In this document: positions 4,454 to 64,000 of the stretch, one piece after another
Position numbering within the stretch: the first letter of the stretch is position 1
Layout of the letters: each line of letters opens with the position of its first letter
Source of the DNA: Dethiobacter sp.
Lineage (GTDB): Bacteria > Bacillota > Dethiobacteria > DTU022 > UBA8154
Direction: 5' to 3'
Assembly: GCA_003605065.1 (NCBI GenBank)
Contig: QZJM01000063.1
Location: forward strand, 12,485-76,484
Length of the DNA stretch: 64,000 bases
The notes under the pieces: generated by a model
Told to the model about the DNA's origin: nothing
The model's input: only the letters and a program-made list of their open reading frames with translations
Database searches by the model: none
Position numbers and translations under genes: made by a program

Positions 4454-4474
4454 TTTTAAAAAACAACTGCATAA

Positions 4475-4768: not shown

Positions 4769-4783
4769 AAGGGGGTATTTTTG

Positions 4784-5821: not shown

Positions 5822-5843
5822 AGTTTCCTGGAGGTAGGTAAAA

Positions 5844-7061: not shown

Positions 7062-7077
7062 AAGGAGGTTGCCGCTT

Positions 7078-7974: not shown

Positions 7975-8033
7975 GTAGGAAAATAGCCGGATAGCTTCCG
8001 CTGCTTTAGGCAAGTTTAAAGGGGTGGGGAAAA

Positions 8034-10161: not shown

Positions 10162-10188
10162 GTAAAAATTAAGGAAAGGGTGACTAAA

Positions 10189-29504: not shown

Positions 29505-29680
29505 CAGGTTTGTCGTTTGCTAAAAACAGCAAGAGAAGTATCCATACCTATTTTTTATCCGATCGTTCAATATGATAAACGAGATTATTTGTGCGCAGTC
29601 ACTGAACATGATGAAATTTCCTTTACTGGTATTAACTGTGATAGAATACTGGCAAATACCAGGAAGGGAAATGAAAATCG

Positions 29681-30524: not shown

Positions 30525-31150
30525 TCGGCAGCGGATGGCAGGCCGGGGCTCAGCTTCTGGCTCTCCTGGCGGTACGGCCTGTTAAAGAAATTAAGGTTTA
30601 CAGCCTGCGAAAAGAAAAACGTGAAGCGTTTGTAGAGGAAATGTGCCTTAAAACAGGGGCTAATATCCGATCTGTAGAAAGCCCCGAGGAATGTGTCCGG
30701 GAAGTAGACATTATTTTAGCTGCCACCTCGTCTCTTGTCCCTGTAATACGCCCGGAATGGTTGTCAGAGGGTGTACATATAAGCTGCATTAAAGCACAGG
30801 AAGTGGATGAAGCAGTTTTAAATACCTGCCAACGAATTGTCGTTCATACCAGGGTCCAACAAAAACAGATAGATAATATTCTTCCGGGCACAAAGTATAT
30901 TCCACAGGAACATGAACAAGGATGGTGGAATAAAGAGAGCCTGTGGGAAAGCCTTCCGGAGCTCTCTGATCTGATTGCCGGGCGTATTGCCGGACGGAAA
31001 AATGAGAAAGAGATTACCTGTTTTGTCAATAATGTCGGGGCAGGCCTGCAATTTGCTGCCCTGGGTGCCTTAATATTGAAAAAAGCCGGGACCCTTGGCT
31101 TGGGCAGGGAACTCCCCGGCGAATGGTTCTCCGAAGATGTACATCCTTAA
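30525..31150 (+). pseudogene. 3' fragment of an ornithine cyclodeaminase / mu-crystallin family gene (N-terminal part missing)
   Basis: Rossmann motif LIGSGWQAGAQL and OCD-like C-terminus. It starts exactly where the integrase C-terminal frame ends, and no upstream N-terminal part exists. Confidence 0.55.
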
Positions 31151-31245
31151 ATCTCCGGGCTATATTGATGAGTCTTAAGGACGATACTAACTGGAATTGT
31201 CATGGCAACCGTAATATCCTATTTCACCTGGGCTTAAATTAGCCG

Positions 31246-31742
31246 GTGCTCACTGCTATTTTTGGTGAAGGTTATTTTGCAGGGATAGAGGAGGTGTTTT
31301 CAAAAATATCAGGATTAGCCATAAATTCAACTCTGGTAATTCTTATTATCACATTTCTTTACAACTTATTTCTTCACATGCTGCTTACGCTTTTTCCTCT
31401 CTATATTGCATATCTGGGGCTAAGCCCCGCATTTCTGGGCTTTATTGTCTCACTTTCTGCTGTTATCCAGGTATTTTTTCGCTTGCCTGCCGGAATGGCT
31501 GTGGACAGGTGGGGGGAAAAGGCAGTACTTTTATTCAGTATTGTTTGTATGATCCTTTCAGCTGCTTATTGGTTTTTCGCGAGCCTTATATTGGCCTCCT
31601 TCGGAATCTTATGTCAGCAAAGGTTTTGGGTTTACCCTGGAACGCAGGTTGGGTTTTTTTAATCTGGCAGTAGGTACCGGTCTTATCCTGGGGCCGTTGC
31701 TGGCCGGCTTCTTACTTGGCCGCTTCTATTTGTGTCTTGTTT
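31246..31742 (+). pseudogene. MFS transporter gene fragment (frameshifted and truncated)
   Basis: MFS motif GMAVDRWGEK. Reading continues in another frame after a stop at 31662, and the total length is far short of 12 TM. Confidence 0.45.
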
Positions 31743-45983: not shown

Positions 45984-46928
45984 ATGTTTACCATAACAAA
46001 AGAACAAAAGGTTTGCCAGATTGGCCCTTGGACGATTGGCGGGCAGCCGGGCGATAATCCTCCGCTGTTGATTGCCTCCATGTTTCATAAAGGCGATCGC
46101 ATCCTGGAAAAGCGGAAGGAAGGAAAATTCGATCGCGTAAAGGCGGCTGACTACATCAAACGGCAGGAGGAGCTTTCTGAACAGACAGGGATCCCTGCTC
46201 TTACTGCCATGGTGGCCAATTCTGCCGATGAGATGAAGCGCTATATAGATTTTTACACCGGGTTGAGCAGTAAGCCCTTTGCCGTTGACATGTGGATGCA
46301 GGACCCTCGTGTTGAAGCTGTAAAATACGTCGCGGAGCTCGGCTTAACTGACCGGCTCCTTTATAACAGCATTACTCCCTGGGATAAGGATATTCCCGGA
46401 CAGGTGGCCATGCTTAAAGAGCTGGGTGTCAAGCATGTTGTTGTCCAGGTCTATGATGATAATGATCCTACTCCACAGGGAAGGGTTTCCAGTTTTCGCA
46501 GGATGATGGATATGATCGGTGAGGATAATTTTGAAACGATCCTGGTGGATACCTCCGTGATGAACCTGCCTGCTACTTCCTTTTCGTCTGTGGCAAACAG
46601 GTTAATTAAGGAAGAATTCGGGGTTCCGGTAGGCCTGGCTTCATCAAACGGCACTTTTATGTGGAAGGCGGCCCGCGAAATGTGGGGAGACGAAGGCTTT
46701 TCCTCCATGAACGTGGCGGGGCAGGCAGTGGCGACTATGTTCTGGTGTGATGCCATCTTTTACGGGCCGCAGGTTATAGCACCGCGTGTTTTCCCCGCGG
46801 TGGTAAGTGCAGCGTTAATGCTGGCCACATTTGTTTACCAGGAAACAAACAGTTTGCCATCCAATCCCAATCACCCCCTGTATAAATTTTTCGGAGACTT
46901 TGTGGAAAAGTTGAAGGCCGGTAAATAA
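45984..46928 (+). CDS. MtrH-family methyltransferase (methylcobamide:tetrahydrofolate/pterin methyltransferase, MT II type)
   Basis: 314 aa. Overall resemblance to tetrahydromethanopterin S-methyltransferase subunit H homologs used as MT II in bacterial O-demethylases. Confidence 0.7.
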   Translation: MFTITKEQKVCQIGPWTIGGQPGDNPPLLIASMFHKGDRILEKRKEGKFDRVKAADYIKRQEELSEQTGIPALTAMVANSADEMKRYIDFYTGLSSKPFAVDMWMQDPRVEAVKYVAELGLTDRLLYNSITPWDKDIPGQVAMLKELGVKHVVVQVYDDNDPTPQGRVSSFRRMMDMIGEDNFETILVDTSVMNLPATSFSSVANRLIKEEFGVPVGLASSNGTFMWKAAREMWGDEGFSSMNVAGQAVATMFWCDAIFYGPQVIAPRVFPAVVSAALMLATFVYQETNSLPSNPNHPLYKFFGDFVEKLKAGK

Positions 46929-47063: not shown

Positions 47064-48134
47064 ATGACTTTAACATCAAAAGAACGGGTATTAAACCAGC
47101 TACAGGGCAAGGAGATAGACCGGGTGCCCTGCTACAGCGGGATGGGCAATGTTACAGTAACGGGGTTGAAACAACTGGGCTACAGGTTCCCCCATGTGCA
47201 CAGCGACGCCGAAAAAATGGCCAAACTGGCGGCTACTTCATACAAGCTGTTTGGCTATGAGTGCGCTGTGGTTCCCTTTGATTTCTGCCTGGAGGCAGAA
47301 GCGCTGGGTTGTGTGATAAATCCTTACGAGGATGTAGAGCACCTTCTTTACCCTACCATCAAGGAGAAAGCTATACACAGCGAGGCGGAGATGGCCACTT
47401 TTCCCGTCCCGGAAGACTTAGAAAATGTTGGCCGGGTTCCTGTAGTAGTCGAGGCCATCCGGCGTTTGAAAGAGGATATCGGAGATAAAGTAGCTGTGGG
47501 CACATATTTCACTGCCCCCTTTACTTTGGCTGGTCAAATTTTTGATCTGGACCAGCTCTTTAAGCTATCCTTCAAAAAACAGGATCTTGTTGGCCAAATG
47601 CTCGACAGGCTCGCCGATGTCCTTATCGAACTGGGTAAAATTTATCGTGATGCCGGGGCCGATTATATTAACGTGCGTGAAATGGGGGCAACGACGGATA
47701 TCTTAAGTCCCCGCAGCTTTAAATCCTTGATTTTGCCTCCTCTCCAGAAAATTCATGCCGCGTTAAGTGCTTTAGGAATTCCCAATATCCTGCACATTTG
47801 TGGAGCGACTAATGCTATTGTTCCACTTATGATTGAAGCTGGTGCTGATGCTATTACCGTTGAGGTTAAAAACAATATGCTGAAAACAAGGGAAGATATT
47901 GGTTTTGAACCACTTGTTTTCGGCAATCTTGATGCTTATAAATTATTTGTCCATGACAGCGTGGAGGATGTGGAAAAAGCTGTTATAACTGCTCTGGAGC
48001 AGAGTGTCGACGCTATATGGCCCGGCTGCGATATCTGGCCTGAGGCCAAGCCGGAGAACTTTAAAGCTATGGTCGAGGCTACGGAAAAATATGGCGCGGA
48101 AAAATGGGTGCGCAAACAAAAGTCCGCATCGTAA
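47064..48134 (+). CDS. uroporphyrinogen decarboxylase (URO-D) family methyltransferase (MtaA/MtbA/OdmB-like MT I)
   Basis: 356 aa. URO-D fold signatures (ERVLNQLQGKEIDRVP..). Confidence 0.8.
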   Translation: MTLTSKERVLNQLQGKEIDRVPCYSGMGNVTVTGLKQLGYRFPHVHSDAEKMAKLAATSYKLFGYECAVVPFDFCLEAEALGCVINPYEDVEHLLYPTIKEKAIHSEAEMATFPVPEDLENVGRVPVVVEAIRRLKEDIGDKVAVGTYFTAPFTLAGQIFDLDQLFKLSFKKQDLVGQMLDRLADVLIELGKIYRDAGADYINVREMGATTDILSPRSFKSLILPPLQKIHAALSALGIPNILHICGATNAIVPLMIEAGADAITVEVKNNMLKTREDIGFEPLVFGNLDAYKLFVHDSVEDVEKAVITALEQSVDAIWPGCDIWPEAKPENFKAMVEATEKYGAEKWVRKQKSAS

Positions 48135-48163
48135 TGTCATAAATTATGGAGGAGGTAAATAAA

Positions 48164-49192
48164 ATGTCGGCAATGACTGCAAGGGAACGTTTTTTAAACA
48201 AGCTGGCAGGAAAGGAAACTGATCGTGTTCCTGTTTTTTGTGCTGATCAAACGGGAACTTATGAACAGATGGATAACTTACGGTCTTTTTGGCCGGAAGC
48301 CCATCAGAAGGCCAAAGAAATGGCCGGGCTGGCCCTGGGCGCCTTTACTGTTGCGGGCTTTGATGCTGTAAGAGTTCCGTTCTGCCAGACAATTGAGGCC
48401 GAGGCACTGGGAGCGGGCATAAAATATGCAGGAAAAGAGGGGATCCCCAGTGTTAACGTCCACCCCTACAAGCTGGGTGAGCCTGTCGGACCTCTTCCGG
48501 AGAATTTTTTAGAACGGGGCAGAATACCGGAATTAATTGAGGCGGTAAGGATCTTGAAACGTGAAGTGGGGGATCAGGCTGTTATTATTGGCGGCATCAT
48601 TGGGCCTTTCAGTATTGCCGCCAGCCTGATTGGTATTACCGATATTTTGAAGGCAGCTTTTAAGACCCCGGAAAAGGTTAAACCTTATCTGGACCTTGCC
48701 GGGGAAGCGGGAACAACTTTAGGAAAAGCCTTAATCGAAGCCGGAGCGGATTTGATCTGTGTTGAGGATATGATGGCCTCTATGGATATGATTAGCCCCA
48801 AAATTTACAGGGAACTGGTGGCTCCCTGGGAAACAAGGCAAAATGCCGCTTTATCCGTGCCCGTTATTCTTCACATTTGTGGAAAGACCGATATAATTAT
48901 TGACGATATGGCCAATACAGGAGCCAGTATACTCAGTGTCGAACCAAAAGTTGATGCACCTGCTGCTAAGGAAAAATTAAAAAAATACGACCGCTTTATT
49001 CCTCTAATCGGTGGTGTGGATGCCGTAACAACACTCTTTTCCGGCAGCGAGGAAGAAGTTGTACAGGAGACGATTAAAGCTATCAATCAGGGTTACGACA
49101 TGATTGCACCCGGTTGTTCCATCGCTCCTGGCTCCCCTGTCGTTAATTTACGGGCGATGATCAAAGGCGCTACCCTGGCAAAGGAACAGTAA
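48164..49192 (+). CDS. URO-D family methyltransferase, paralog
   Basis: ATG at 48164 after GGAGGAGG. ARERFLNKLAGKETDRVPVF parallels the upstream paralog. Confidence 0.8.
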   Translation: MSAMTARERFLNKLAGKETDRVPVFCADQTGTYEQMDNLRSFWPEAHQKAKEMAGLALGAFTVAGFDAVRVPFCQTIEAEALGAGIKYAGKEGIPSVNVHPYKLGEPVGPLPENFLERGRIPELIEAVRILKREVGDQAVIIGGIIGPFSIAASLIGITDILKAAFKTPEKVKPYLDLAGEAGTTLGKALIEAGADLICVEDMMASMDMISPKIYRELVAPWETRQNAALSVPVILHICGKTDIIIDDMANTGASILSVEPKVDAPAAKEKLKKYDRFIPLIGGVDAVTTLFSGSEEEVVQETIKAINQGYDMIAPGCSIAPGSPVVNLRAMIKGATLAKEQ

Positions 49193-50061: not shown

Positions 50062-50090
50062 TTGACAAAATTAACTTTACTTTATATAAT
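50062..50090 (+). promoter_or_regulatory. consensus sigma-A promoter TTGACA-17-TATAAT upstream of the cobalamin riboswitch
   Basis: TTGACA at 50062..50067, 17-nt spacer, TATAAT at 50085..50090. Confidence 0.55.
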
Positions 50091-50179
50091 TAAAGACAAC
50101 ATAAACTTTACTGTTACTAAATATTTTAACACTTAGAGTTGTTAATAAATATGTTAAATATACTTGGTAATGATTCGGG

Positions 50180-50336
50180 TGCTTCTCTTTCACCTGGAGA
50201 AGATAATAGGGAACCAGGTGTAATTCCTGGGCGGTCGCGCCACTGTGAAGGGAGAGCTTATTTCAGAAAGGTCACTGGATAAAATCCGGGAAGGCAGAAA
50301 TAAGCTATGACCCCAAAGTCAGGAAACCTGCCCGTT
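50180..50336 (+). promoter_or_regulatory. cobalamin (B12) riboswitch
   Basis: AATAGGGAACCAGGTGTAATTCCTGG, B12 box GCCACTG (50239..50245), CCGGGAAGGCAG, and AGTCAGGAAACCTGCC all match conserved blocks of the cobalamin riboswitch. Confidence 0.85.
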
Positions 50337-50423
50337 TCATAGTACATAAAAAAACCTTCTTCGCGTTAAGGGAGGGGTAATTAACATATTAAAACTCGCG
50401 CGGATAAGGTGGTATTATTTAAA

Positions 50424-50561: not shown

Positions 50562-50667
50562 AGCGGCTATATCCTAATAGGAGTTATATGGCCGCTCTAA
50601 TTTTTGAACAGATCAAAAGCGATTTTCAGGTGTAGACAGTAAATAGCTTGCCGGGGGTTAAAATAGT

Positions 50668-51006
50668 ATGCCTCTTAAAAATGTTATAGAAGCCAAAAAG
50701 CAGAAAGGGGAAAAAATTGATAATAAAGTAAGATATATCCAGAAACATAAACCCATATTTTCAGTGCTTGAAAAAATTAAGCTTTGGCCTTCAAGTTCAG
50801 GTATCTTACATGGTATTAAACATTTAACCAGGGATGGCAATTATATAGTAATTGAAACACATTGTCATGAGCAGATAAAGGTAAGGATATCAAAAAACAG
50901 CCGAGCTGCAAGGTGGCTGAGGAACAAGTGGGCTGAAAGGGTATGTACTGTTTGTCGTATTCCGTCCTGGAAAGTTAATAAGTATCTAAATACATCGTTT
51001 AAATAA
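50668..51006 (+). CDS. pylSn: pyrrolysyl-tRNA synthetase N-terminal tRNA-binding domain protein
   Basis: 112 aa. Matches the bacterial PylSn free-standing domain. Directly precedes pylSc. Confidence 0.85.
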   Translation: MPLKNVIEAKKQKGEKIDNKVRYIQKHKPIFSVLEKIKLWPSSSGILHGIKHLTRDGNYIVIETHCHEQIKVRISKNSRAARWLRNKWAERVCTVCRIPSWKVNKYLNTSFK

Positions 51007-51018
51007 GTGGAGGCATTA

Positions 51019-51834
51019 ATGAAGTTTACTCATGTGCAAATACAACGTCTTATTGAACTTGGTTTAAATACCGGCCTTGAGTATGAATTTGCCAATAGTA
51101 TTGAAAGGGAAGCAAATTTTAAGCAACTGGAAAAAGAACTAGTCAAACAAAACAAAGCTGCATTAAAAAGATTGCATGAAGAGAAACGTCCTTTGCTTAA
51201 AACTGTAGAACAAAAACTTATTGGTGTTTTAACTGAAAATGGATTTATTGAAGTAATCACACCTATTTTAATGTCCAGGGGCTTGCTGGAAAAGATGGGA
51301 TTAACTCCTGAATTATTTCGACAGGTGTTTTGGGTTGATGAGGGGAAAAAAAGGTGCTTGCGCCCAATGCTGGCTCCTCATTTATACTACTTGTTAAGAA
51401 AAATGAAAAAAATATGGCCTGCTCCCCTGAAAATATTTGAAGTTGGACCGTGTTTTCGCAAGGAGTCAAAGGGAGGGTACCATATGGAAGAATTTACCAT
51501 GTTGAATCTGGTGTGCTTTAGCTGTACTGAACCCCTTGCTGAGTTGCTGGATCTGGCTGATAAACTGCTTGACCCTTTTAATATACCATTTAACATTACT
51601 GATGAGTATAGTGAAGTTTACGGCCGGACGATTGATATAGTAGTAAATGATGTAGAAATTGCTTCTGCCGCGGTTGGCCCGCATGAGCTTGACAAAAACT
51701 GGGATATTACCGGCAGCTGGTATGGAATCGGTTTGGGATTGGAACGTTTGGCTATGGTTCTCCAGGGGTATCAAAATATAAGGCGCGTGAGCAGGAGTTT
51801 AAGTTACCAAGATGGGGCCCGCCTTAATATTTAG
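51019..51834 (+). CDS. pylSc: pyrrolysyl-tRNA synthetase catalytic domain (class II aaRS core)
   Basis: Class II motifs (FRKESKG..; GIGLGLERL). ATG at 51019 after GTGGAGG. Stop is TAG. Confidence 0.9.
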   Translation: MKFTHVQIQRLIELGLNTGLEYEFANSIEREANFKQLEKELVKQNKAALKRLHEEKRPLLKTVEQKLIGVLTENGFIEVITPILMSRGLLEKMGLTPELFRQVFWVDEGKKRCLRPMLAPHLYYLLRKMKKIWPAPLKIFEVGPCFRKESKGGYHMEEFTMLNLVCFSCTEPLAELLDLADKLLDPFNIPFNITDEYSEVYGRTIDIVVNDVEIASAAVGPHELDKNWDITGSWYGIGLGLERLAMVLQGYQNIRRVSRSLSYQDGARLNI

Positions 51835-51867: not shown

Positions 51868-52980
51868 ATGCCGGACGAAAAATTTCCTGTTGAGAATTTC
51901 ACAAGAAAGGCTTTAATGAAGCAGCCGTTAACTGCCTCGGAAATTGCGGCCCTGGTTTACCTGCGTGATGAAGGGCAAATTGCCAGGCTTAAAAAGGGTG
52001 CCTGCCAGATCAGAACACAATTTTTTGGCAATCATGTTTTCCTTTACGGGTTTGTTTATTTTAGCACATATTGTCGAAACCTTTGCTCATTTTGTAATTA
52101 TGCGGCGAAGAATAAGATGAACAGGTATCGCAAATCAGTTCAGGAGATACTGGCAGTATGCAGAAGCCTGCAGTTCTCAGGAGTTCATCTTATTGATCTG
52201 ACCATGGGAGAGGACCCTCATTATTTAACACATGAAGGTGATGCTCTCCTGGAACTGGTTAAATTTGTTCGCTCCCAGGTAGATTTGCCGCTAATGTTGT
52301 CACCGGGAGTTATCGGAGAACATTTGCTTGAAAGCCTGGCTGAACTTGGAGTGGCCTGGTATGCCTGTTATCAGGAAACCTATAATCCTAATTTATTTCA
52401 ACAGCTAAGGGTGGGGCAAAGTTTTACCAGGCGTTTGGGGGCGAAACAGAAAGCCAGAGAAGCTAACCTGCTGGTAGAGGATGGGATGCTGTTGCATCTC
52501 GGAGAGAGTGAACAGGATATTATTTCTTCCATTCTCGCTATGCAAAGACTCGGAGTTCACCAGGCCAGGGTTATGGCTTATGTTCCTCCGGAACCTAACG
52601 GTCTACCTAAAAGGCGCTCTCACAACCTGGAAGAAGAAACGGTTATCGCCATTTTGCGCCATGTTTTTCCGGACAGATTGATTCCCGCGTCACTGGATAT
52701 AGAAGGTTTAAAAGGTCTCTCTTCCCGCTTGAAGGCCGGAGCCAATGTCGTTTCTTCCATTATTCCCCCCATGACCGGGCTAAGGGGAGTATCTCAAACT
52801 ACCCTTGATATTGATGAGGGGAGAAGGACTGTGGAAAACGTCAAAGAGGTGTTGAAATCGCTGAATTTGGAAGTTGCACCTTTAAGTATGTATTTTGCCC
52901 TGGTGCAGCGTTTTAGAGAGGAACAAAGAATGGGAACTATGGGGAATATAGGGGAAGAAAGGGTAGGCTTGCTTCTATGA
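51868..52980 (+). CDS. pylB: methylornithine synthase (radical SAM lysine mutase)
   Basis: FSTYCRNLCSFCNY radical-SAM cluster motif. Close overall match to archaeal PylB. Confidence 0.9.
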   Translation: MPDEKFPVENFTRKALMKQPLTASEIAALVYLRDEGQIARLKKGACQIRTQFFGNHVFLYGFVYFSTYCRNLCSFCNYAAKNKMNRYRKSVQEILAVCRSLQFSGVHLIDLTMGEDPHYLTHEGDALLELVKFVRSQVDLPLMLSPGVIGEHLLESLAELGVAWYACYQETYNPNLFQQLRVGQSFTRRLGAKQKAREANLLVEDGMLLHLGESEQDIISSILAMQRLGVHQARVMAYVPPEPNGLPKRRSHNLEEETVIAILRHVFPDRLIPASLDIEGLKGLSSRLKAGANVVSSIIPPMTGLRGVSQTTLDIDEGRRTVENVKEVLKSLNLEVAPLSMYFALVQRFREEQRMGTMGNIGEERVGLLL

Positions 52981-53861
52981 CAAGGTTAAAGCAGGAAAAT
53001 TTACTCTCTCTCGATCTTAGGAAATATGATTGTGAACTGGAGGAAAAAGCCGGGAAGACTTTGGCTCAGCTTGTTCAGGAAGGGGCGGGCTTAACTCAAC
53101 CCCTGGAAATGTTTACAAAGGAAAAAGCAGCAGTTATACCGATTACTGCAGGCCTGGGAATAATTACAGGTTTTACTGCGGCAGTGGAATCAATACTTAA
53201 GCATGTGGGTCTTAATGTTAAACTGACGGAAAACACAGATATGGCAGGAATAAGTGAAGCTCTGGACTGGGGTGCAAATCTTCTCTTTTGTGCTGATGAC
53301 AACATCTTTTTCGTGCTGGATATGCTTAGTGGTAGCTATGTTGATAATGCCCTGGCTACAGCGGATATGTTTATGTTTGCGATCAACAAGCTGGCTGATG
53401 GTCTCCAGGGGAAGAGCACTTTGATTGTAGGCCTGGGTAAAGTTGGTAATGCCTGCTTGCTATCTGCTTTGCAGAAAGGTGCAAAAGTGTACGTTTATGA
53501 TAAATTGCCGGAGCATTGTGTAACCGCTGCCCGTAAGTATCCAGGTGTATCCCCGGTAAAGGAATCATTAATGAATGCCTGCCGGAAAGCGCAGGTAATT
53601 ATTGATGCTTCCCCGGAAGGAAGTTTTATCAGGGATGAGTGGTTGTCAGATGATGTGGTAATCGGGGCACCCGGTGTGCCGCTCGGTTTGGAGGAAAAAG
53701 CATATAAACGGCTGTTTAAAAGAGTTATTCATGATTGTCTTCCCCTGGGGGTTGCCGGTATGGTTGCCAAAGTTTTCTCCCAGCGGAAAGGACTTAACAA
53801 GTCTGTAAGAAAGAAGGTGGGATATGAGCAAGTGGTAACAGCACTCGGCAGGCTTGACTAA
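52977..53861 (+). CDS. pylD: pyrrolysine synthase (NAD-dependent dehydrogenase)
   Basis: LIVGLGKVGNACLLSALQKGAKVYVYD Rossmann motif paralleling the archaeal PylD region. 4-nt overlap with pylB. Confidence 0.85.
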   Translation: MTRLKQENLLSLDLRKYDCELEEKAGKTLAQLVQEGAGLTQPLEMFTKEKAAVIPITAGLGIITGFTAAVESILKHVGLNVKLTENTDMAGISEALDWGANLLFCADDNIFFVLDMLSGSYVDNALATADMFMFAINKLADGLQGKSTLIVGLGKVGNACLLSALQKGAKVYVYDKLPEHCVTAARKYPGVSPVKESLMNACRKAQVIIDASPEGSFIRDEWLSDDVVIGAPGVPLGLEEKAYKRLFKRVIHDCLPLGVAGMVAKVFSQRKGLNKSVRKKVGYEQVVTALGRLD

Positions 53862-53963: not shown

Positions 53964-55133
53964 ATGAGTAAACGGCATCTTCTGTTTCTGGTCTCCGGAG
54001 TTGTTGCCTTGCTGGTTTTAAGCACTACCGCTTTCGCCCAGGAAGTTACCCCTCTTGCTGAACAGCTTTTCCGCTATCACCGCGGGCAGGACATCTTTTT
54101 TATGTTCATGCTGGTGGCATTTCTGATGTTGTTCATCAAACGCTATGAGTGGGGCGTTTGTTTGATGACAATGCTGATCATATCGGTTGCCTTTCCTTTC
54201 TATTTTGCAGTGCAGACAATTTATTTTGGCAATGCCTGGAATATGGATCTGATTATCCTGGGAGTAGTCTGTGCCATTACCCTGGTAATCTCTGCAGGTA
54301 TGTTTCTCGGCCAGGTTAAAACATGGCAGTATATAATTATTGGATTATTATTTGTTATCGCTTATTCCATTAATGAATGGTTTCTTTTTACCTACCTGGA
54401 AGGAGTTGCTGATATGGGCGGCAGCCTTCTGGTCCATGCTTTTGCAGCCTACTTTGGCTACGGGATGATCTTGTCGTTACGGCATAAAAAGATCATGGAT
54501 GCTCCCATGAAAGTAACGGTCCACAGCGTTTCTTTTGTCTGGCTGGCATCCATGTTGCTATGGATGCTCTGGCCATCATTTACAACTGCGCTGCTTGCAC
54601 CGGACCAGGTAATCGGCGGTATGCTTGCCACTTACATGGCCTTAATGGCTTCCACTGTGATAACTTACCTGGTGCTTCTGGCAATCCATAAAAAAATCGA
54701 TCCTTTAGTTTATACCTATGCCATCCTGGCTGGTGGGGTAGCTATTGGCTCTACGGTTGATCTTGTCGGGCCGTGGGCTGCTTTTGCTATAGGACTGCTG
54801 GCCGGCATTGTTTCCTCCCTGTGCTTTGTTTACCTGCATCCTACCCTTGAAAAAGTACTGGGTGTTCGTGATGTAATGGGTGTACACAACCTGCATGGTG
54901 TTCCAGGAATTCTTGGTGCTCTTTTTGCTATTCCTTTTGCCGGAGCCATACAGGTTACAGCTGCAGTAGGGACATTTGTAATAGCAATAGTTACCGGACT
55001 GGTTGCCGGGTTGATTATGAGAGCTTTCGGAAGAAACGAGGAATACATCCTAGACGATGCTGAAAGCTTCTCCATGGAAGACGCCAGGGGCACTGAAAGC
55101 GTTTCCATAGGAGAATCAGGTATTTCTGTATAA
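53964..55133 (+). CDS. Amt/MEP/Rh-family ammonium (methylammonium) transporter with N-terminal signal peptide
   Basis: Signal peptide ..TTAFAQEV. 11 predicted TM segments. Amt signature region VDLVGPW..GVHNLHGVPGILGALF. Confidence 0.8.
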   Translation: MSKRHLLFLVSGVVALLVLSTTAFAQEVTPLAEQLFRYHRGQDIFFMFMLVAFLMLFIKRYEWGVCLMTMLIISVAFPFYFAVQTIYFGNAWNMDLIILGVVCAITLVISAGMFLGQVKTWQYIIIGLLFVIAYSINEWFLFTYLEGVADMGGSLLVHAFAAYFGYGMILSLRHKKIMDAPMKVTVHSVSFVWLASMLLWMLWPSFTTALLAPDQVIGGMLATYMALMASTVITYLVLLAIHKKIDPLVYTYAILAGGVAIGSTVDLVGPWAAFAIGLLAGIVSSLCFVYLHPTLEKVLGVRDVMGVHNLHGVPGILGALFAIPFAGAIQVTAAVGTFVIAIVTGLVAGLIMRAFGRNEEYILDDAESFSMEDARGTESVSIGESGISV

Positions 55134-55368: not shown

Positions 55369-56014
55369 GATGAGTAAAGAAATTCTGGCCAAATTACAAC
55401 GTGCTGTCGAAGAACAGGATGTGGAAGCCGCTGAGGCTGCGGCCCGTGAAGCAGTTGCCGCAGGGATCGATCCCTTTGTGGCTATCAACGAGGGCCTATC
55501 TCCCGCTATGCAGACCATTAGTGATCTGTTTGATGACGGAGAACTGTATGTGCCCCAGATTTTGTTTGCGGCAGAGGCTTTTATGAATGCCATGGCTATC
55601 CTGACAGAAAAGCTTTCGGCAGAAGAAGTAAGCAAAACTAAGCGCGGCAAAGTTATCGTGCATACAGTCCAGGGAGATATCCATGACATCGGAAAAAATA
55701 TTGTCGGCACAATGTTAACAGCCAACGGCTTTGAAGTAATTGACCTGGGCCGCGATGTTCCGATTGATGTGGTTGTGGAGAAAGCAAAAGAGCTCGGAGT
55801 AGACATGGTTACCGGTTCGGCGCTTATGACCACCACTATGCCATCCCAAAGGGATATTGTTAAGGCACTCGACGAAGAAGGTATCAGGGGAAAAGTCAAA
55901 TGCATGTTTGGTGGTGCCCCGGTTACTAAGGAGTGGGTCGACCAAATCGGTGCCGATGGTTATGCAAGTAACGCCTCTGAAGCGGTAATTGTAGCGAAGG
56001 AACTTATGGGTTAA
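55369..56014 (+). CDS. mtmC: monomethylamine corrinoid protein
   Basis: GDIHDIGKNIV DxHxxG motif. Strong similarity to archaeal MtmC across the full length. RBS GGAAGGAGG. The ORF-track start at 55259 overlaps pylT and is rejected. Confidence 0.9.
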
Positions 56015-56042
56015 AAAAATCTTTAAGAAAGGAGTGAGAAGA

Positions 56043-57422
56043 ATGTCTAATGTTCCCAAGGTTGGGGTATTTGAAGCCTATGCCAGGGCAACTACAGGAC
56101 CACGCGTCCCTGAAAAAGACTGGGACTACAAAATCATTCCCCAGGCCGCCAGCCGCCTGAAGGAAAAATACGGCATCAAAATGGATAAAAGGAAGATGAT
56201 TCCCACAGATGAAAATCTAATAAACAATCTCTTCAGGGCAGGCATGGAAATGCTGGTGGAATGTGGAGTTTACTGTATGGATACTGGGCGGGTTATCAAG
56301 TACACCGAAGAAGAAGTCTGGACGGCCGTTAAAAATGCCCCCAGGTGTTTAACGCTCGGTGAAGGCCGTGATTCAAGAGAACTCAAAGGGCGCAGGTATG
56401 ACGACAGCAGGCCGCCTATCATCCAGGGGGGACCTACCGGAGCACCGGTAGCAGAGCAGGACTTTGTAGCCATGCACGAAGCCTATGCCCGTGAGCCGAT
56501 CGTCGATACCATTGTTGACGGTGTTATGCAGACGATCAATGGCTACGATCCGAGGCCTAACACCCCCTTCGAAATTGCGGCGGTCAAGAACGAAGCGATG
56601 ATGATTAGACTGGCACAGGTCCGTGCCGGTCGCCCGGGGATGGGATTGTAGGGCAACGAAACTTCACTCAGTGCCGCAGGGGTTATCGCTGCTGATTTTC
56701 CCGGCGGCATGAGGGCATCAGATAGCCATGAAGTTTCCCAGCTGAACGAGCTGAAGATAGATGTAGGTGCACTATCTTTTGTTGCTCACTATGTTTTGGC
56801 TGGAGATATCATCATGTGTGAACAGATGCCCATCTTGGGAGGCTATGCAGGTGGTCTGGAGGAAACGACCATTGTTGACGTTGCCACCACGCTGAATGCC
56901 TTCCTAATGACACAGGCGCACTGGCATCTTGATGGCCCGATCCATGTGCGGTGGGGGATTACCACGGCCAGAGAAGTGCTGGCGGTAGCCGGCCACTGTG
57001 CACGGGCAATCGAGGAAAATACACATTTACTTCTTGGTAACCAGTATTATACATTGGCCGGTCCCTGCACGGTAATGTGCCTGTTGGAAACGGCAGCCCA
57101 GTCTATCACCGATACAGCCAGCGGCCGGGAACTTGTTTCCGGGGTAGCCTCGGCCAAAGGAGTGGCCACAAACTATACTACTGCCATGGAAGCCCGCTTC
57201 ATGGGTGAAGTGGCCCATGCTGTAGCCGGGATGGATTTAGAAAAGGTTAACGGGATTCTTGATGAGCTGGTAGGTATGTACGAGACCCAGTACAAGACAG
57301 CTCCCAAAGGAAAAACTTTCAATGAGTGCTATGATCTTGTCAGGTTGACTCCTTCTGACGAGTACATGCAGGTTTATAAAGAGGCGTGGGGGATTTTAAA
57401 TAAACTCGGCCTCAAGTACTAA
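56043..57422 (+). CDS. mtmB: monomethylamine methyltransferase with in-frame UAG (56649..56651, codon 203) decoded as pyrrolysine
   Basis: Two same-frame ORFs (56034..56651 and 56709..57422) are separated only by TAG. Flanking sequence ..GMGL-UAG-GNETSLSAAG.. and ..DSHEVSQLNELKID.. matches archaeal MtmB around its Pyl codon. pylT and pylSBCD are in the same locus. Confidence 0.9.
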
Positions 57423-57523
57423 GGGCCAGGGGTAAGATGCAGCAGCCTGTACCCCGGTCCGCTTTCTTGGGCCGGGGTACAGGGTATTTTGTTTACGTAA
57501 TTAAAAAAAAGAGGAGAAGAACT

Positions 57524-58183: not shown

Positions 58184-58720
58184 ATACAGGAATTAAACGT
58201 TCCCCGTTATGGAAAAGTTGTGGCTGGTAGCAAATTCACTGTTGTTGCCGCACAAAATCCTTATGACGATGTTGGCACAGTACGCATTAGCCGTGCTTTT
58301 ATGGATCGAATTTGTCGCATTACTTTAGATTATCAAACCGAGGCCGAAGAAATAGAAATTGTTAAAAATAGAACCGGTTTATCTGATGATAATTTGGTCT
58401 TGTGGGCTGTAAAGCTAACGCGGCAGTCACGAAGTCACGATGATATTAAAATGGGAGCTTCAGTGCGTGCTGCCATTGACATAGTTGCCTTGAGCGAAAG
58501 TATGAAAAAAAGAGGGGCTTTCACCAGGGATAATGTTAAAGAAGCTGTTTTTATGGCTCTAAGCAGTAAAATATGGCTGACTGAAATGACCCCCAAAACC
58601 CCGGAACATGTGATACGTGAAATTATCAATGTTGTTGAACAAACAGAGGGGATTAGTTATTTTCCTGCTGCAGGACAAGAAGAACAAAAACCGCAGAAAA
58701 AAAAAGCGATGAACAATTAA
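58184..58720 (+). pseudogene. MoxR-like AAA+ ATPase fragment (C-terminal two thirds only, Walker A region missing)
   Basis: VVAAQNP..AFMDRI sensor/arginine-finger region of MoxR. The open frame begins at a stop at 58181 with no N-terminal ATPase half. Confidence 0.55.
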
Positions 58721-58737
58721 AACAGACGGGAAAAAAC

Positions 58738-58959
58738 TTGCCGCTAATCAGGCTAGATCAAGATCATGCAAGTGATCTTTCTTTGCCCTATCGTCTGGCG
58801 ATGTACTACAGTAATAATCCGGAAGAACTAGAGAATTTTTTTGAACAGGATGAGGCCATTACTATTTTCGGCACTTTTTTTGATATGCTTAAGTCGGAGG
58901 CAAAAAAGATAGCTAAGGGTATACATATTTATCTTTTATCTGCTGTATCAAATTTTTAA
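58738..58959 (+). CDS. small hypothetical ORF (73 aa)
   Basis: ORF only, with no recognisable motifs. Confidence 0.2.
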   Translation: MPLIRLDQDHASDLSLPYRLAMYYSNNPEELENFFEQDEAITIFGTFFDMLKSEAKKIAKGIHIYLLSAVSNF

Positions 58960-58976: not shown

Positions 58977-60173
58977 TTGAACGTGGGTGTTCTGGGAGGT
59001 GGATTACAGGGTCTGGAGGCGGCTTATCTTCTTAAAAAAGCCGGTCACAGGGTTTTGATGCTTGAAAAGAGGCCACATGCTCCTGCTCTGGGGTTGGCTG
59101 ACGAAAAGTTTTGTTTTAACCTTACAGCTACCTGTCAACAGGAACTGCTAGATTTTTTAAAGAAAGTTGATGTAATTATTCCCGCTACGGAAAATAAAAC
59201 CACCCTTGTGGTTATGAATGAGGCGGCGAAAAGATATGCCAAAGTTTTCTGCTTTGATTCCCAGGCATATGAGCTAAGCAGCAGTAAAAGCCTGTCCAAT
59301 AAGCTTTTTTCTCAGCTGGCACTGCCCAGGCCTATTCCCTGGCCGGATTCCTCTTTCCCCTTAATAGTAAAACCGTCTGAGGAAAGCGGAAGCCGCGGTG
59401 TAAAAATTGTTTTTAACCAAAATGAACTGGATAAGGTCCTAACCGAAGAAAAACTGTATAAAGGCGGTTTTATCATTGAGGAATTTCTGGAAGGTCCTTC
59501 ATATTCCATAGAGGTGGTTACAATAAACGGTGAAGGTTTCGCTTTTGAAACAACTTTGCTTGGTTTTGACGAGCTTTTTGACTGTAACAGGGTTATTGCC
59601 CCCAACGGGTTAGATGAAAAGAGTAATAAAGAAATGCAGGAAATGGCACTGCGTATCGCGCAGTCCTTAAAGCTTACAGGTATCATGGATCTGGAAACTA
59701 TTTTACATGAAGGAAAGTTTAAAGTGCTGGAAATTGATGCCCGTTTGCCGAGTCAAACACCTACTGTTGTCTACAAGGCAACAGGCCTGAATCTGGTTTC
59801 TTATTTATTGTCGTCATTTCTTCACAAAGATTTACCGGGGGTAGAAGCAGGTGCAAAAAGAGCTGTAATTTATGAACATCTTTATTTTTGTGACGGCATG
59901 GTCTTTTTCCCCGGAGAACATATCATCACCTCCTGTAAAGAAAATCTTTTTTATATGGAGGATTTTTTTGGTGCAGACGAAGCCATTACGAACTGTGTGG
60001 AAAAAAAGGAGCAAAAATCCTGGGTTGCTACTGTTATCATAACGGGCCACAACCTGGAACAGGCCCGTACCAAAAGAGAATATATGCTGAAAAGGATTTT
60101 AGAAAAATACCGGGCTGAATTATTTCCTTCTAAAAATATCGAGAAAACTGCAGTAAAGGGAAGAAAAAGTTAG
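58977..60173 (+). CDS. pylC: pyrrolysine biosynthesis ATP-grasp ligase (3-methylornithine--L-lysine ligase)
   Basis: ATP-grasp. ..LEIDARLPSQTPTVVYKATGLNLV.. closely parallels archaeal PylC. TAG stop. Confidence 0.9.
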   Translation: MNVGVLGGGLQGLEAAYLLKKAGHRVLMLEKRPHAPALGLADEKFCFNLTATCQQELLDFLKKVDVIIPATENKTTLVVMNEAAKRYAKVFCFDSQAYELSSSKSLSNKLFSQLALPRPIPWPDSSFPLIVKPSEESGSRGVKIVFNQNELDKVLTEEKLYKGGFIIEEFLEGPSYSIEVVTINGEGFAFETTLLGFDELFDCNRVIAPNGLDEKSNKEMQEMALRIAQSLKLTGIMDLETILHEGKFKVLEIDARLPSQTPTVVYKATGLNLVSYLLSSFLHKDLPGVEAGAKRAVIYEHLYFCDGMVFFPGEHIITSCKENLFYMEDFFGADEAITNCVEKKEQKSWVATVIITGHNLEQARTKREYMLKRILEKYRAELFPSKNIEKTAVKGRKS

Positions 60174-60185
60174 GGAGGCTTGGAG

Positions 60186-61823
60186 ATGAACAAAATTGGT
60201 ATTGCCCTGGATTTGGGGACCAGCGGTTTTCGAGGACAGGCCATCGACTTGTCTGCGAATGCGGTTTTAAAAACAGTAATAACTGCCCGTCATCCCCTGC
60301 CTGGCGCAAACGTGATGGATCATCTCAACTTTGCCATTATGGCTGGGCCGGATGTAGCTCACCAGATCATCATGGCTACAATAAACCAGATTATAGATCT
60401 GCTAAATATGCCCGGTTTCGCCATTGAGTGTTTTGCCGTTTGCGGCAACCCGATTCAACTTTCCCTCTTTGAAAATATTGAAATCAGGGATTTGGCCTAT
60501 GCGGGTGAAAATTACCGCCGCCAGCTGGGGATTGTCTCTCCTGATCGCAGCAGCAAGGAATACCCGGCTGAGCGGTTTCCACTGTTAAACTTACCGGGGA
60601 ATTGCCTGGTTTTTATTCCCCCTGCTGTAAAACATGAAATAGGGGCAGATGCTCTGGCCATGTTGATTCTTTCCGGAATTCTGGATAAGGAAGAAATTTG
60701 CCTGGCTACCGATTACGGGACAAATGCTGAAATGGCTCTGAAAGTGGGAGATAAAATCATTACCGGTTCTGCCGCTGCCGGCCCTGCTCTGGAAGGACAG
60801 CATGTTGAGAACGGGATGCTGGCTGCACCTGGGGCCATTTCTGACCTCCGACCGGAAAACGGCGGCTACCGTTGTCTTGTTCTCAATACTGAGATGCAGC
60901 CTGAGGACGGAGATTTACTTACTCTTGACAATGGAACTGTACTTCAAAAGGGCCGGTTAGAGGCCAAAGGAATAACCGGAACGGGTGTAATAGCAACAGT
61001 TTCACAGGGTATGGACAGCGGCCTGGTAAGCCTTCCCAATATTAAAACTGCTAGCGGCTCACTGCATCTTTCCAACGGGATTCGTTTTAGTAAGAAGGAC
61101 TTAATCGAAGCCGGGAAGGCTATCGGCGCAATCCGGGCCGGTTACCTCACACTGGCCGCTGAGGCAGGAGTCTCTGTAGAAGATATCCGTGTTGCTTTTA
61201 TGGCCGGTGCATCGGGAACTTATGTGGATGCACGTAAAGCGATGAACATCGGCATGGTTCCTCCTAAGGTAAAGGAAATATATCAGGTTGGTAATACTTC
61301 CTTGTTGTTGGCAAGAGAAATTGTGCAGGATCCCCGGAGATTAAAAACTCTTGATGAAATTGCCCGACAGTTACGGGCAAGACATTGTATGTTTGGTCTT
61401 TCCAAGGTTTTTGAAAAGGCTTATTTGCTGGAGCTTTCATACTGGACGGAAGGCCTCCCATGGGAACTTTATAAAAAATACGCCAGAATGTACCAGCTTC
61501 CGGAGTTGCCGCAGCTTCACACCGATGTAAATGTTACTAAAAAGGTCACCCGTGATATAAGGGATATTGGGAAAGATGGCTTGATCACCATAGAGAGAGT
61601 CGGTGAAGAAAGACACTGGTTTGTACCCGGGTGTGTCAACTGTGGCCAGTGTGTAGAAGAATGCCCTGAAAATGCTATAAAGCTCGATGATACTCTGGGC
61701 GTTGTGATGCGCATGGACTGCTGCAGTGGAACTGCCTGCCAGCGCTGTGAGCATATTTGTCCGGAAAAAGTTTTTCGTCTTTCAGAATTTTGGATGAACT
61801 CTTTAAAAATTAGCTGTGATTAG
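60186..61823 (+). CDS. ramA: RamA-like corrinoid reductive activase (ASKHA ATPase plus C-terminal 2x[4Fe-4S] ferredoxin domain)
   Basis: ATG at 60186 after GGGAGG. C-terminal CVNCGQCVEECP and C..C..CQRCEHICP clusters. Confidence 0.8.
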   Translation: MNKIGIALDLGTSGFRGQAIDLSANAVLKTVITARHPLPGANVMDHLNFAIMAGPDVAHQIIMATINQIIDLLNMPGFAIECFAVCGNPIQLSLFENIEIRDLAYAGENYRRQLGIVSPDRSSKEYPAERFPLLNLPGNCLVFIPPAVKHEIGADALAMLILSGILDKEEICLATDYGTNAEMALKVGDKIITGSAAAGPALEGQHVENGMLAAPGAISDLRPENGGYRCLVLNTEMQPEDGDLLTLDNGTVLQKGRLEAKGITGTGVIATVSQGMDSGLVSLPNIKTASGSLHLSNGIRFSKKDLIEAGKAIGAIRAGYLTLAAEAGVSVEDIRVAFMAGASGTYVDARKAMNIGMVPPKVKEIYQVGNTSLLLAREIVQDPRRLKTLDEIARQLRARHCMFGLSKVFEKAYLLELSYWTEGLPWELYKKYARMYQLPELPQLHTDVNVTKKVTRDIRDIGKDGLITIERVGEERHWFVPGCVNCGQCVEECPENAIKLDDTLGVVMRMDCCSGTACQRCEHICPEKVFRLSEFWMNSLKISCD

Positions 61824-62053
61824 TTCAGGTTAATACTTGTCTCCGAGGTATTTTTCTGGTAAGATATAACAGGAAGAATAAAGCCTGTTTAGCTGATTAT
61901 TATAACAGTTACTTTAATTAAAAAAGTTTAAAAGTGTATTTTCCCGGAGATATAAAAAACGAAACTGGAGAATATACTTTTTCTATCTATAAAACATATA
62001 TTTTTTGTCATAAGATGTTGAAAAATTCTTAATATAGCAAGAGGTGGCTTCTC

Positions 62054-64000
62054 TTGACGGAAACGCTCTCTTTGGAAAAACGTACCGAGAGAATAGGGGC
62101 TTCATGGCAGAGATTTATTGTAAAAGGCAAAATTGAATCTTATGTCGTCAGTGAAATTATTGCCAATTCCTGGCAACGAAGCCTGGAAGCCGGTGTTAAC
62201 CCCTTTGTTAATCTGCAGACCTTTTTTACCGTTAAAAATATTATAGATTATAAGTATCTTGTGAAGGTAAGCCGTCCTTTTCTGGATAATCTTTATGCTT
62301 TTGTAAAAGGCTCTGACTTTTTGGTTCTTTTAACTGATGCAGATGGAACGATTATTAAAGTTCTTGGAGATCCGGTAATAGTACAGAAGTTAAAAAATAT
62401 TCCTTTTCGGGAAGGAGTTAACTGGGGTGAAGGCTGTCTGGGAACAAACTGTATTGCCCTTGCTGTAAAGGAAAAGATCCCTGTGCATGTTTTTGCTGCA
62501 GAACACTTTATTCAGCAGCTTCACTCCCTGGTAGGTTCAGCGGCGCCTTTTTTCTGCCAGAATGGAAATCTTCTTGGCGTTATTGCCATGTTCGGGTTAT
62601 TCAAGGATTTTCATCCTCATACCCTGGGAATGGTTGTCGCCTCTGTGAAGGCTATAGAAAACCAGATTTTATATATGGAAGCAAACCGTTCCCTGAAAAG
62701 ATCTTACAGGGAAGTCACTACGATTATGGAGGAGATAACTGCCGGATTGATTTCAGCTGATCACCAGGGCAGGGTAAGCATGTTGAATACAGCTGCCTGT
62801 AAAATGCTGGGCATTAATTATCAGGCAGGGGTTTCCCAGCATCTTGGTCAACTATTTGGGAAAGACTGCCCCTTTCTTCAGGCCATGGAAGAGGATCTAG
62901 AATATTCTGATCGGGATATAACATTGTCCTGTAACGGCATAACCAATCGTTTCTACTGCAGCCTTCGCATTATAAGAGATGAAAACAATAAGAAACTAGG
63001 TATGGTAATTACCCTCCGTGAACACAAAGCTATCCGCCGCCTTGTAAACAGGGCATTTGGCGCTCAGGCCACTTTTACCTTTTCTGATATCTATGGAGAG
63101 CACTTGTTAATTAAAAAGGCCATTAATGCGGCACAGCGTGCTGCCCATTCTAATAATACCATTTTAATTGTGGGCGAAAGTGGTACCGGCAAAGAAATGT
63201 TTGCCCAGGCCATACATAATGAAAGCGAGCGCTGCAGGGGTCCTTTTGTGGCTATCAACTGTGCCGGAATTCCCAGGGAACTGGTGGAAAGCGAACTTTT
63301 CGGTTACGAAGCGGGGGCTTTTACAGGTGCCAGGCGGGAAGGCCGTCCTGGAAAATTTGAACTGGCACAGGGCGGAACTCTCTTTCTGGATGAAATAGGA
63401 GATATGCCCCTGGAGATGCAAGCAAAGTTATTAAGGGTACTTCAGGATAAATTTATTACACGCCTGGGAGGAGATTCCCCTATCCTGGCAGATGTACGTG
63501 TAATCGTGGCTACCAACCGCAATATTTTTGCCCTGGTGGAGGAAGGAACTTTCCGCCCCGATCTCTTTTATCGCATTAATGTCATTACACTGCAATTGCC
63601 AAGTTTACGCACCCGTGAGACAGACATACTCCTGCTGGCTAATTTATTCCTTGAAAAAGCCATTTTTAAAATGGGACTCCCTTCCCCGCCAAGGCTTTCG
63701 GGGAGATTGGAAGAGAGACTTTTACGCTATTCCTGGCCGGGGAATGTCAGAGAACTGCAGAATGTAATAGAGCAAATGGTTTTTAACGCCAACGGTTCTC
63801 TCAAACTGGATGAAGAACACCTGCCCGAAAAAATGATGAAAACTGCTACAACACAATCAGGTTCCGAAGATATGGCCCTGGAAGCCCAGGAATTAAAACA
63901 TATTCTTTTGGCTCTGGAAATGTGCCAGGGCAATATTGCCCATAGTGCGCGGCTGCTAGGCATTGGCCGCAACACTTTATATCGCAAAATTAACAAGTAC
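62054..64000 (+). CDS. sigma-54-dependent transcriptional activator (AcoR-like: N-terminal GAF/PAS sensory region, AAA+ sigma-54 domain, Fis HTH), 3' end beyond window
   Basis: TTG start after AAGAGGTGG. GESGTGKE Walker A, GAFTGA loop (GYEAGAFTGA), ESELFGY and HTH (ARLLGIGRNTLYRKINKY). Absent from the ORF track because the frame runs off the window edge. Confidence 0.8.
   Translation, partial: MTETLSLEKRTERIGASWQRFIVKGKIESYVVSEIIANSWQRSLEAGVNPFVNLQTFFTVKNIIDYKYLVKVSRPFLDNLYAFVKGSDFLVLLTDADGTIIKVLGDPVIVQKLKNIPFREGVNWGEGCLGTNCIALAVKEKIPVHVFAAEHFIQQLHSLVGSAAPFFCQNGNLLGVIAMFGLFKDFHPHTLGMVVASVKAIENQILYMEANRSLKRSYREVTTIMEEITAGLISADHQGRVSMLNTAACKMLGINYQAGVSQHLGQLFGKDCPFLQAMEEDLEYSDRDITLSCNGITNRFYCSLRIIRDENNKKLGMVITLREHKAIRRLVNRAFGAQATFTFSDIYGEHLLIKKAINAAQRAAHSNNTILIVGESGTGKEMFAQAIHNESERCRGPFVAINCAGIPRELVESELFGYEAGAFTGARREGRPGKFELAQGGTLFLDEIGDMPLEMQAKLLRVLQDKFITRLGGDSPILADVRVIVATNRNIFALVEEGTFRPDLFYRINVITLQLPSLRTRETDILLLANLFLEKAIFKMGLPSPPRLSGRLEERLLRYSWPGNVRELQNVIEQMVFNANGSLKLDEEHLPEKMMKTATTQSGSEDMALEAQELKHILLALEMCQGNIAHSARLLGIGRNTLYRKINKY

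Follow-up and report, generated by a model that had tools for sequence, protein, structure and literature searches.

The monomethylamine methyltransferase MtmB1 of Methanosarcina barkeri (PDB 1NTH, 1L2Q, 1TV2-4) is the enzyme in which pyrrolysine was discovered. Pyrrolysine (Pyl) is residue 202 of this protein and lies on a beta-strand in the centre of the TIM barrel (PMC9842639). Pyl-containing MtmB is already established in bacteria and has been documented for more than a decade (PMC3941956, PMC6778437), with examples from Acetohalobium arabaticum and Desulfotomaculum acetoxidans (PMC3941956) and from 'Ca. Formimonas warabiya' DCMF (PMC6778437). MtmB homologues without Pyl have been described for Bilophila wadsworthia (PMC3941956) and for Methanococcoides methylutens, in the latter case linked to tetramethylammonium/choline (PMC13044021). 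Here we analyse an mtmB gene with an in-frame TAG codon in 64,000 nucleotides of contig QZJM01000063.1 (the window), which belongs to a metagenome-assembled genome (MAG) of Dethiobacter sp. from the lineage Dethiobacteria, Bacillota. Judged from its sequence, it is very probably a functional bacterial mtmB, with the UAG at codon 203 read as pyrrolysine and not as a stop. No paper linking Dethiobacter with the use of pyrrolysine was found.

In common with the M. barkeri MtmB1 system, the window gene has a full-length match to the family, a UAG at codon 203 (202 in M. barkeri) and the same motif context around it. Likewise, a gene for an MtmC-type corrinoid protein is adjacent, ramA and pylTSBCD are found in the locus, and a match to the Rfam family PYLIS_1 extends from the UAG. 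The differences are the bacterial host, the final methyl acceptor, which is presumably tetrahydrofolate and not coenzyme M, a pyrrolysyl-tRNA synthetase that is split into PylSn and PylSc, and the use of TAG as a stop codon, which is not rare (17%). With other bacterial Pyl-MtmB loci the window shares the TAG, an mtmC directly 5' of mtmB, pylT and pyl genes within a few kb, the split synthetase, and RACo/RamA-type activases and URO-D-type methyltransferases nearby. Unlike most of these loci, it has a different order of the pyl genes and a cobalamin riboswitch in front of pylSn, the latter occurring only here and in the closest relative, locus L001.

The gene starts with the ATG at 56043-56045, with a GGAG 8 nt 5' of it, and ends with the TAA at 57420-57422. 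Translation between these positions meets one internal stop, the TAG at 56649-56651, which is preceded by 202 codons ((56649-56043)/3) and hence is codon 203. A first-pass annotation of this DNA had described two open reading frames (ORFs), 56034..56651 and 56709..57422, as parts of a single frame separated by this codon, a description that proved exact to the base. The two ORFs are in a common frame (56709-56043 = 666), and the 57 nt from the TAG to the ATG at 56709 are open and encode conserved MtmB residues (GNETSLSAAGVIAADFPGG). Across position 203, the predicted residues are PGMGL-O-GNETSLSAAGVIAADFPGGMR. No further lesion, neither a frameshift nor a second internal stop, was found on translation of 56043-57422.

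For protein comparisons, codon 203 was entered as X in the read-through product. This product matches the Pfam family MtmB (PF05369) with 733 bits (E 1.3e-220), its residues 8-457 covering positions 2-450 of the 450 profile positions. NCBIfam release 20 returned no family for the read-through protein, so the naming of mtmB rests on Pfam and PDB; the hidden Markov model set of NCBI is apparently without an MtmB model that scores the window protein. A HMMER alignment with M. barkeri MtmB1 (PDB 1L2Q/1NTH/1TV2) spans residues 9-458 (E 3.7e-172), with an identity of 57.5% and a single gap of one residue. In this alignment, codon 203 pairs with MtmB1 residue 202, which 1L2Q gives as X and 1TV2 as K, and both proteins have the local motif GRPGMG-x-O-G-x-ETSLSA in common. 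Glu205, Glu229 and Glu259 of MtmB1, the acidic residues around the Pyl ring, are kept as E206, E230 and E260. The flanks of the TAG had been noted earlier to match the Pyl region of archaeal MtmB; translated through the TAG, the gene indeed places this codon on Pyl202 of the M. barkeri enzyme.

A scan for homologues in one genome per GTDB species yielded 79 bacterial mtmB loci with 63-89% identity to the window MtmB. These loci span Bacillota, Actinomycetota, Desulfobacterota, Thermodesulfovibrionales and others and include Pyl-type mtmB genes of Sporomusa, Desulfosporosinus, Thermincola and Acetobacterium, as well as that of 'Ca. Formimonas warabiya' DCMF (L024, 74% identity). When residue 203 was mapped onto the DNA of the 79 loci, all 81 intact mtmB copies proved to have TAG at the homologous codon; the sole exception is a broken copy in locus L022 with a frameshifted alignment, which is not among the 81. 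An inactivating nonsense mutation would not be conserved to this extent.

Other residues at this position were seen in further homologues. A natural change from Pyl to Cys (TGT) is present in L081 554-1951 (Logan SRR15661548; P0002), whose product is 68% identical to the window MtmB and otherwise of the Pyl type; in L081, genes for a corrinoid protein and a URO-D protein come after this Cys-type homologue. At the Pyl position, Lys, Met or a deletion is found in full-length homologues of 45-50% identity (P0004, P0005, P0007, P0012, P0014), and these proteins are comparable to MtmB-like proteins that were recently tied to the use of quaternary amines (PMC13044021). The non-Pyl homologues from the database (P0004-P0007, P0012, P0014, P0038) have the PF05369 fold and a similar length, with 33-50% identity to the window MtmB, but in them the Pyl site is deleted or has a sense codon (K, M, others), the GMG-x-O-G-x-ETS motif is lacking, and the substrates are reported or expected to be other ones. 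The window mtmB, in which both TAG and motif are present, is therefore to be grouped with the Pyl enzymes.

The genes for making and using pyrrolysine are present in the same window (Table 1). pylSn, pylSc, pylB, pylD and pylC were named by NCBIfam equivalog models, and all of them are intact and score above the cutoff. The only tRNA that ARAGORN detected in the window is tRNA-Pyl(CUA). Its cloverleaf is atypical, with a D loop of 5 nt and an anticodon stem of 6 bp in the predicted fold; the sequence of pylT is identical to that in L001, and compensatory changes in the anticodon stem are seen across 16 homologues. mtmC starts 90 nt 3' of pylT. In most of the 79 loci the pyl genes are likewise located no more than ~10 kb from mtmB, and pylT was found by ARAGORN in 37 of the 60 loci scanned. 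PylB, PylC and PylD would make pyrrolysine from two lysines, and the split synthetase, PylSn together with PylSc, would charge tRNA-Pyl. pylSn directly precedes pylSc in the same frame with one stop in between; a fusion of the two by TAG read-through was considered and rejected, the separating stop being TAA.

The same evidence bears on the alternatives to decoding as pyrrolysine. Decayed genes in the vicinity, namely the AAA/VWA remnants at 58220-58959 and an internally deleted integrase at 29681-30524, would fit a pseudogene that arose by nonsense mutation and is now the relic of a decaying methylotrophy island. We consider this very improbable, and the earlier judgement that the gene is recoded and not a pseudogene is upheld by the comparisons. 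The MtmB domain is full length and bears no lesion other than a TAG, which coincides exactly with the codon for Pyl202; the same TAG recurs in every intact copy (81/81) down to 63% identity; the rest of the protein is undisturbed and as similar to the archaeal enzyme as stated above (57.5% identity); and the Pyl genes, all intact and above their cutoffs, form a complete machinery that is accompanied by MtmC and RamA. Still harder to credit is a split enzyme, with the ORFs of 202 aa and 237 aa as separate genes whose products assemble into MtmB. The Joint Genome Institute (JGI) gene call does list two MtmB-domain ORFs, and an ATG is available at 56709, but the 57-nt linker between the TAG and this ATG is open and encodes conserved residues, among them Glu206 (Glu205 of MtmB1), and Pyl202 is located on a beta-strand within a single TIM barrel (PMC9842639). 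The bases before 56709 contain no purine run resembling a ribosome-binding site (GGAGG/AGGAG). C-terminal fragments in the database start at varying positions after the TAG, which points to a gene-caller artefact.

A canonical amino acid could be inserted at UAG-203 by near-cognate suppression or, as in code 15, by genome-wide reassignment of TAG. In agreement with this, the homologue P0001 was translated with TAG as Q by a gene caller, and the occurrence of Cys (TGT) in one 68% identical homologue and of K or M in more distant ones indicates that the fold tolerates other residues at this site. Genome-wide reassignment, however, is contradicted by the use of TAG as the terminal stop in 8 of the 48 window genes, including argD. 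The genes for a dedicated tRNA(CUA), for the cognate synthetase and for Pyl biosynthesis adjoin mtmB, and MtmB homologues without Pyl reportedly have other substrates (PMC13044021). With these points against it, a canonical residue at position 203 appears very unlikely, and pyrrolysine is the residue that we assign to the codon.

Some observations nevertheless weigh against this assignment. The case is built throughout on sequence, and that of a MAG. The locus is rearranged, with remnants of decayed genes between mtmB and pylC. The window genes do not avoid TAG as a stop, so that read-through must coexist with termination. Finally, the PYLIS-like hairpin shows neither covariation nor excess stability across the bacterial homologues once coding constraint is controlled for.

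Regarding stop usage, the 48 window genes end with TAA (29), TGA (11) or TAG (8, 17%). The genes with a terminal TAG include the housekeeping gene argD as well as pylSc, pylC and ramA, with stops at 51832-51834, 60171-60173 and 61821-61823, respectively. TAG in the window is ambiguous, not reassigned, and an ambiguous TAG without reassignment has been described for Pyl-encoding archaea (PMC12626013). Most likely, Pyl-tRNA(CUA) would compete with the release factor at UAG. Strict site specificity of UAG decoding is improbable, given that 8 of the 48 genes terminate with TAG. A PylC-RamA fusion by read-through of the pylC stop, which ramA follows in frame with 549 codons to the next stop, was examined and dismissed. 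The TAG of pylC is not conserved, with TGA in 28, TAA in 11 and TAG in 4 relatives and TAA in the close relative L002, and the arrangement is probably incidental.

The match to PYLIS_1 covers the complete model, and its hairpin begins 6 nt after the UAG. All 15 of the 15 consensus pairs are standard pairs. The minimum free energy of this stretch is -44.7 kcal/mol, with a z of -4.1 versus dinucleotide shuffles and of -2.06 versus synonymous resampling. As the PYLIS_1 model was itself built on mtmB coding sequence, the structure was tested in the bacterial homologues. For the post-UAG stretch of 66 homologues, RNAalifold gave a consensus energy near zero (-1.06 kcal/mol). On the Rfam PYLIS structure, 72.8% of the cells in the bacterial homologues were paired, and 47 of 500 shuffles attained the covariation score. 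In synonymous-codon resampling, the post-UAG stretch of the homologues had a mean Z of -0.22 and did not differ from other parts of the gene. One lone pair covaries (columns 37-72, CG 17 / GC 15). Selection on the PYLIS structure thus found no support beyond coding constraint in RNAalifold, in pair counts on two structures or in synonymous-codon resampling. The hairpin 3' of the UAG is present, while selection on it is unproven; it may help decoding but is probably not required.

Selenocysteine recoding, with UGA, SECIS and SelB, offers a parallel, since there too an enzyme gene for redox or methyl-transfer chemistry contains a stop that is decoded as a non-canonical residue, and standard gene callers split the gene. 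Selenocysteine insertion depends on an elongation factor of its own and on an mRNA element that is indispensable. No such obligatory element is known for Pyl (PMC12626013), and the hairpin after the UAG in the window has no covariation support.

The enzymes with which MtmB would cooperate are encoded on both sides of it. MtmC contains the cobalt-ligand motif DxHxxG in the form GDIHDIGK, and RamA consists of the RACo ASKHA domain (RACo_C_ter) and a C-terminal Fer4 (4Fe-4S ferredoxin) domain at residues 485-530. Upstream of the pyl genes, the MtrH-family and MtaA/CmuA-family genes are candidates for the downstream methyl transfer, and a second corrinoid protein, an RACo/AcsV-type activase and CobA are also encoded there (Pfam/NCBIfam). 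The Amt-family gene is located between pylD and pylT, recurs in the pyl/mtm loci L001, L002, L003 and L079, and encodes a candidate (methyl)ammonium transporter.

Homology to the characterised Methanosarcina system and the gene content suggest the following pathway. MtmB, a TIM barrel of 459 residues, would bind and activate monomethylamine via the Pyl imine and then methylate Co(I) of MtmC, while RamA would re-reduce inactive Co(II). The upstream enzymes of the MtaA/CmuA type, the MtrH type or both would pass the methyl group on, probably to tetrahydrofolate. The Amt-family protein may import methylammonium.

Table 1. Positions of mtmB, its amber codon and associated features in the window.
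Feature	Position	Strand	Evidence and remarks
MtrH-family methyltransferase gene	45984-46928	+	Pfam; NCBIfam NF002142, 362 bits; candidate for downstream methyl transfer
MtaA/CmuA-family (URO-D fold) methyltransferase gene	47064-48134	+	Pfam; TIGR01463, 241 bits; candidate for downstream methyl transfer
MtaA/CmuA-family (URO-D fold) methyltransferase gene	48146-49192	+	Pfam; TIGR01463, 281 bits; candidate for downstream methyl transfer
Sigma-70 promoter	50062-50090	+	Consensus 12/12; upstream of pylSn
Cobalamin riboswitch aptamer	50160-50349	+	RF00174, 122.7 bits; upstream of pylSn
pylSn, pyrrolysyl-tRNA synthetase small subunit	50668..51006	+	TIGR03912, 107.7 bits (cutoff 51); TAA stop
pylSc, pyrrolysyl-tRNA synthetase catalytic subunit	51019..51834	+	TIGR02367, 278 bits (cutoff 178); TAG stop
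pylB, methylornithine synthase (radical SAM)	51868..52980	+	TIGR03910, 404.5 bits (cutoff 348); identical to RJX24213.1, 'PylB [Dethiobacter sp.]'
pylD, 3-methylornithyl-N6-L-lysine dehydrogenase	52977..53861	+	TIGR03911, 202 bits (cutoff 150); PF21455; directly 3' of pylB
Amt-family membrane protein, divergent	53964..55133	+	PF00909, 123.8 bits; NCBIfam ammonium transporter TIGR00836, 77 bits (cutoff 343)
pylT, tRNA-Pyl, CUA anticodon	55209..55280	+	ARAGORN
mtmC, cognate corrinoid protein	55370..56014	+	TIGR02370, 252 bits (cutoff 215); B12-binding and B12-binding_2; 28 nt 5' of mtmB
mtmB, monomethylamine:corrinoid methyltransferase	56043..57422	+	459 codons including one in-frame TAG
Predicted pyrrolysine codon, in-frame TAG	56649..56651	+	Codon 203 of mtmB; aligns with Pyl202 of M. 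barkeri MtmB1
PYLIS_1 match	56649..56748	+	Rfam RF01982, 91 bits (gathering score 70); model positions 1-100 of 100
Intrinsic-terminator-like hairpin, strong	57446..57483	+	Just 3' of the mtmB stop; 16-bp stem with 11 GC pairs, then T-rich tail
pylC, 3-methylornithine--L-lysine ligase	58977..60173	+	TIGR03909, 384 bits (cutoff 248); identical to RJX24219.1; TAG stop
ramA, reductive activase of methylamine corrinoid protein	60180..61823	+	TIGR04270, 753 bits (cutoff 500); TAG stop

The genes of the window are arranged in the order pylSn-pylSc-pylB-pylD-amt-pylT-mtmC-mtmB-DUF2284-(remnants)-pylC-ramA. The first-pass annotation had placed pylT, pylSn/Sc and pylBCD in one locus; all of them are there, but pylBCD is not contiguous (B-D...C), as pylC is detached from pylB and pylD and lies downstream of mtmB. 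Among the loci compared, this order is otherwise found only in the three closest ones, L001-L003, and most relatives have mtmC-mtmB-pylT-(activase, URO-D)-pylSc-pylB-pylC-pylD-pylSn. Both pylTScBCDSn and pylSnScBCD orders have been published, and the clusters can be interrupted (PMC3941956). The region 58220-58959 contains the remnant of a MoxR-like AAA ATPase (C-terminal 166 aa, with an upstream TAA stop) and a 73-aa piece of its VWA partner. In L002 the MoxR-like AAA and VWA genes are full length (319 aa and 237 aa), and the comparison indicates a deletion between mtmB/DUF2284 and pylC in the window. Between pylT and mtmC, the three closest loci have a match to Rfam PYLIS_2, the element of the dimethylamine methyltransferase gene mtbB (L001 7350-7449, L002 8949-9048, L003 3911-4010), and L002 also has a match to PYLIS_3 (mttB). 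Rfam gave no PYLIS_2 (mtbB) or PYLIS_3 (mttB) match in the window; at its mtmB locus, the Pyl-dependent genes for dimethylamine and trimethylamine seem to have been lost or to have been absent from the outset.

The region directly upstream of pylSn carries a promoter and a cobalamin riboswitch aptamer (Table 1). A helix 3' of the aptamer (ACCUU...AAGGU) can sequester the ribosome-binding site of a short ORF that follows the riboswitch. This ORF encodes 45 aa that match no Pfam family and are weakly similar to an 84-aa ORF in the same place in L001. A terminator-like hairpin at ~50562-50606 is located ~60 nt before pylSn. Promoter, aptamer and hairpin are all conserved in L001 (element at 1363-1559). 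A scan of 16 other pyl loci detected no cobalamin riboswitch, a search of metagenomes for the exact riboswitch core returned nothing, and no paper mentioning both a cobalamin riboswitch and pyrrolysine was found. The position of the element suggests that it may control the pyl genes. A tentative and rather doubtful extension is that the Pyl cassette of this Dethiobacter-like lineage is gated by corrinoid availability, so that a particular B12 status would be required for UAG to be decoded as pyrrolysine. If this were true, the meaning of a codon would be tied to the cofactor needed by the partner protein of the Pyl enzyme. Should the riboswitch truly control the pyl operon, natural genetic-code expansion would gain a new regulatory input.

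Elsewhere in the window, a six-frame scan for TAG-interrupted genes returned one further candidate, at 29675-31150, which was rejected since Pfam shows it to be a broken integrase fused by chance to an ornithine-cyclodeaminase fragment. The scar region around it (29681-31662) contains a tyrosine-recombinase pseudogene together with truncated fragments of an ornithine cyclodeaminase and of an MFS protein. In the recombinase pseudogene (29681-30524), the N-terminal part ends at a TAG, the C-terminal part is in another frame and ~50 profile positions are missing. A T-box leader (4472-4747, 100.7 bits, gathering score 93) is located directly 5' of the arginine biosynthesis cluster argCJBDFGH (4730-12824). 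In the last ~2 kb of the window (61900-64000), neither strand has an ORF of more than 89 aa, and no Rfam match reached the gathering thresholds.

How such genes appear in public annotation was anticipated in the statement that any standard pipeline will mis-call mtmB, which is correct in part. The public JGI record of the same DNA (contig Ga0394679_024326) divides the gene into two ORFs with MtmB domains (202 aa and 237 aa), and most close matches in the protein database are C-terminal fragments of ~254 aa beginning after the TAG. Some callers, however, read through: the full-length database match P0001 has a 'Q' at the Pyl site, which is the TAG translated with an alternative code. Fragmented Pyl gene pairs needed manual repair in published genome work, and their re-annotation, by hand or by NCBI, is established practice (PMC6778437).

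The closest relatives in the genome scan are MAGs, and to judge from their isolate names (DeMMO, CROMO) they may have been sampled at subsurface or serpentinite sites. With the window, the bacteria that use UAG as pyrrolysine gain a further lineage and an unusual pyl gene order; knowledge of the mechanism is left unchanged. The uniform TAG in 81 bacterial copies, without covariation for PYLIS, agrees with the current view that Pyl is inserted without an obligatory mRNA signal. The relevance of the finding lies mainly in annotation, as the two MtmB fragments in the JGI record would hide monomethylamine methylotrophy in a Dethiobacter-type bacterium.

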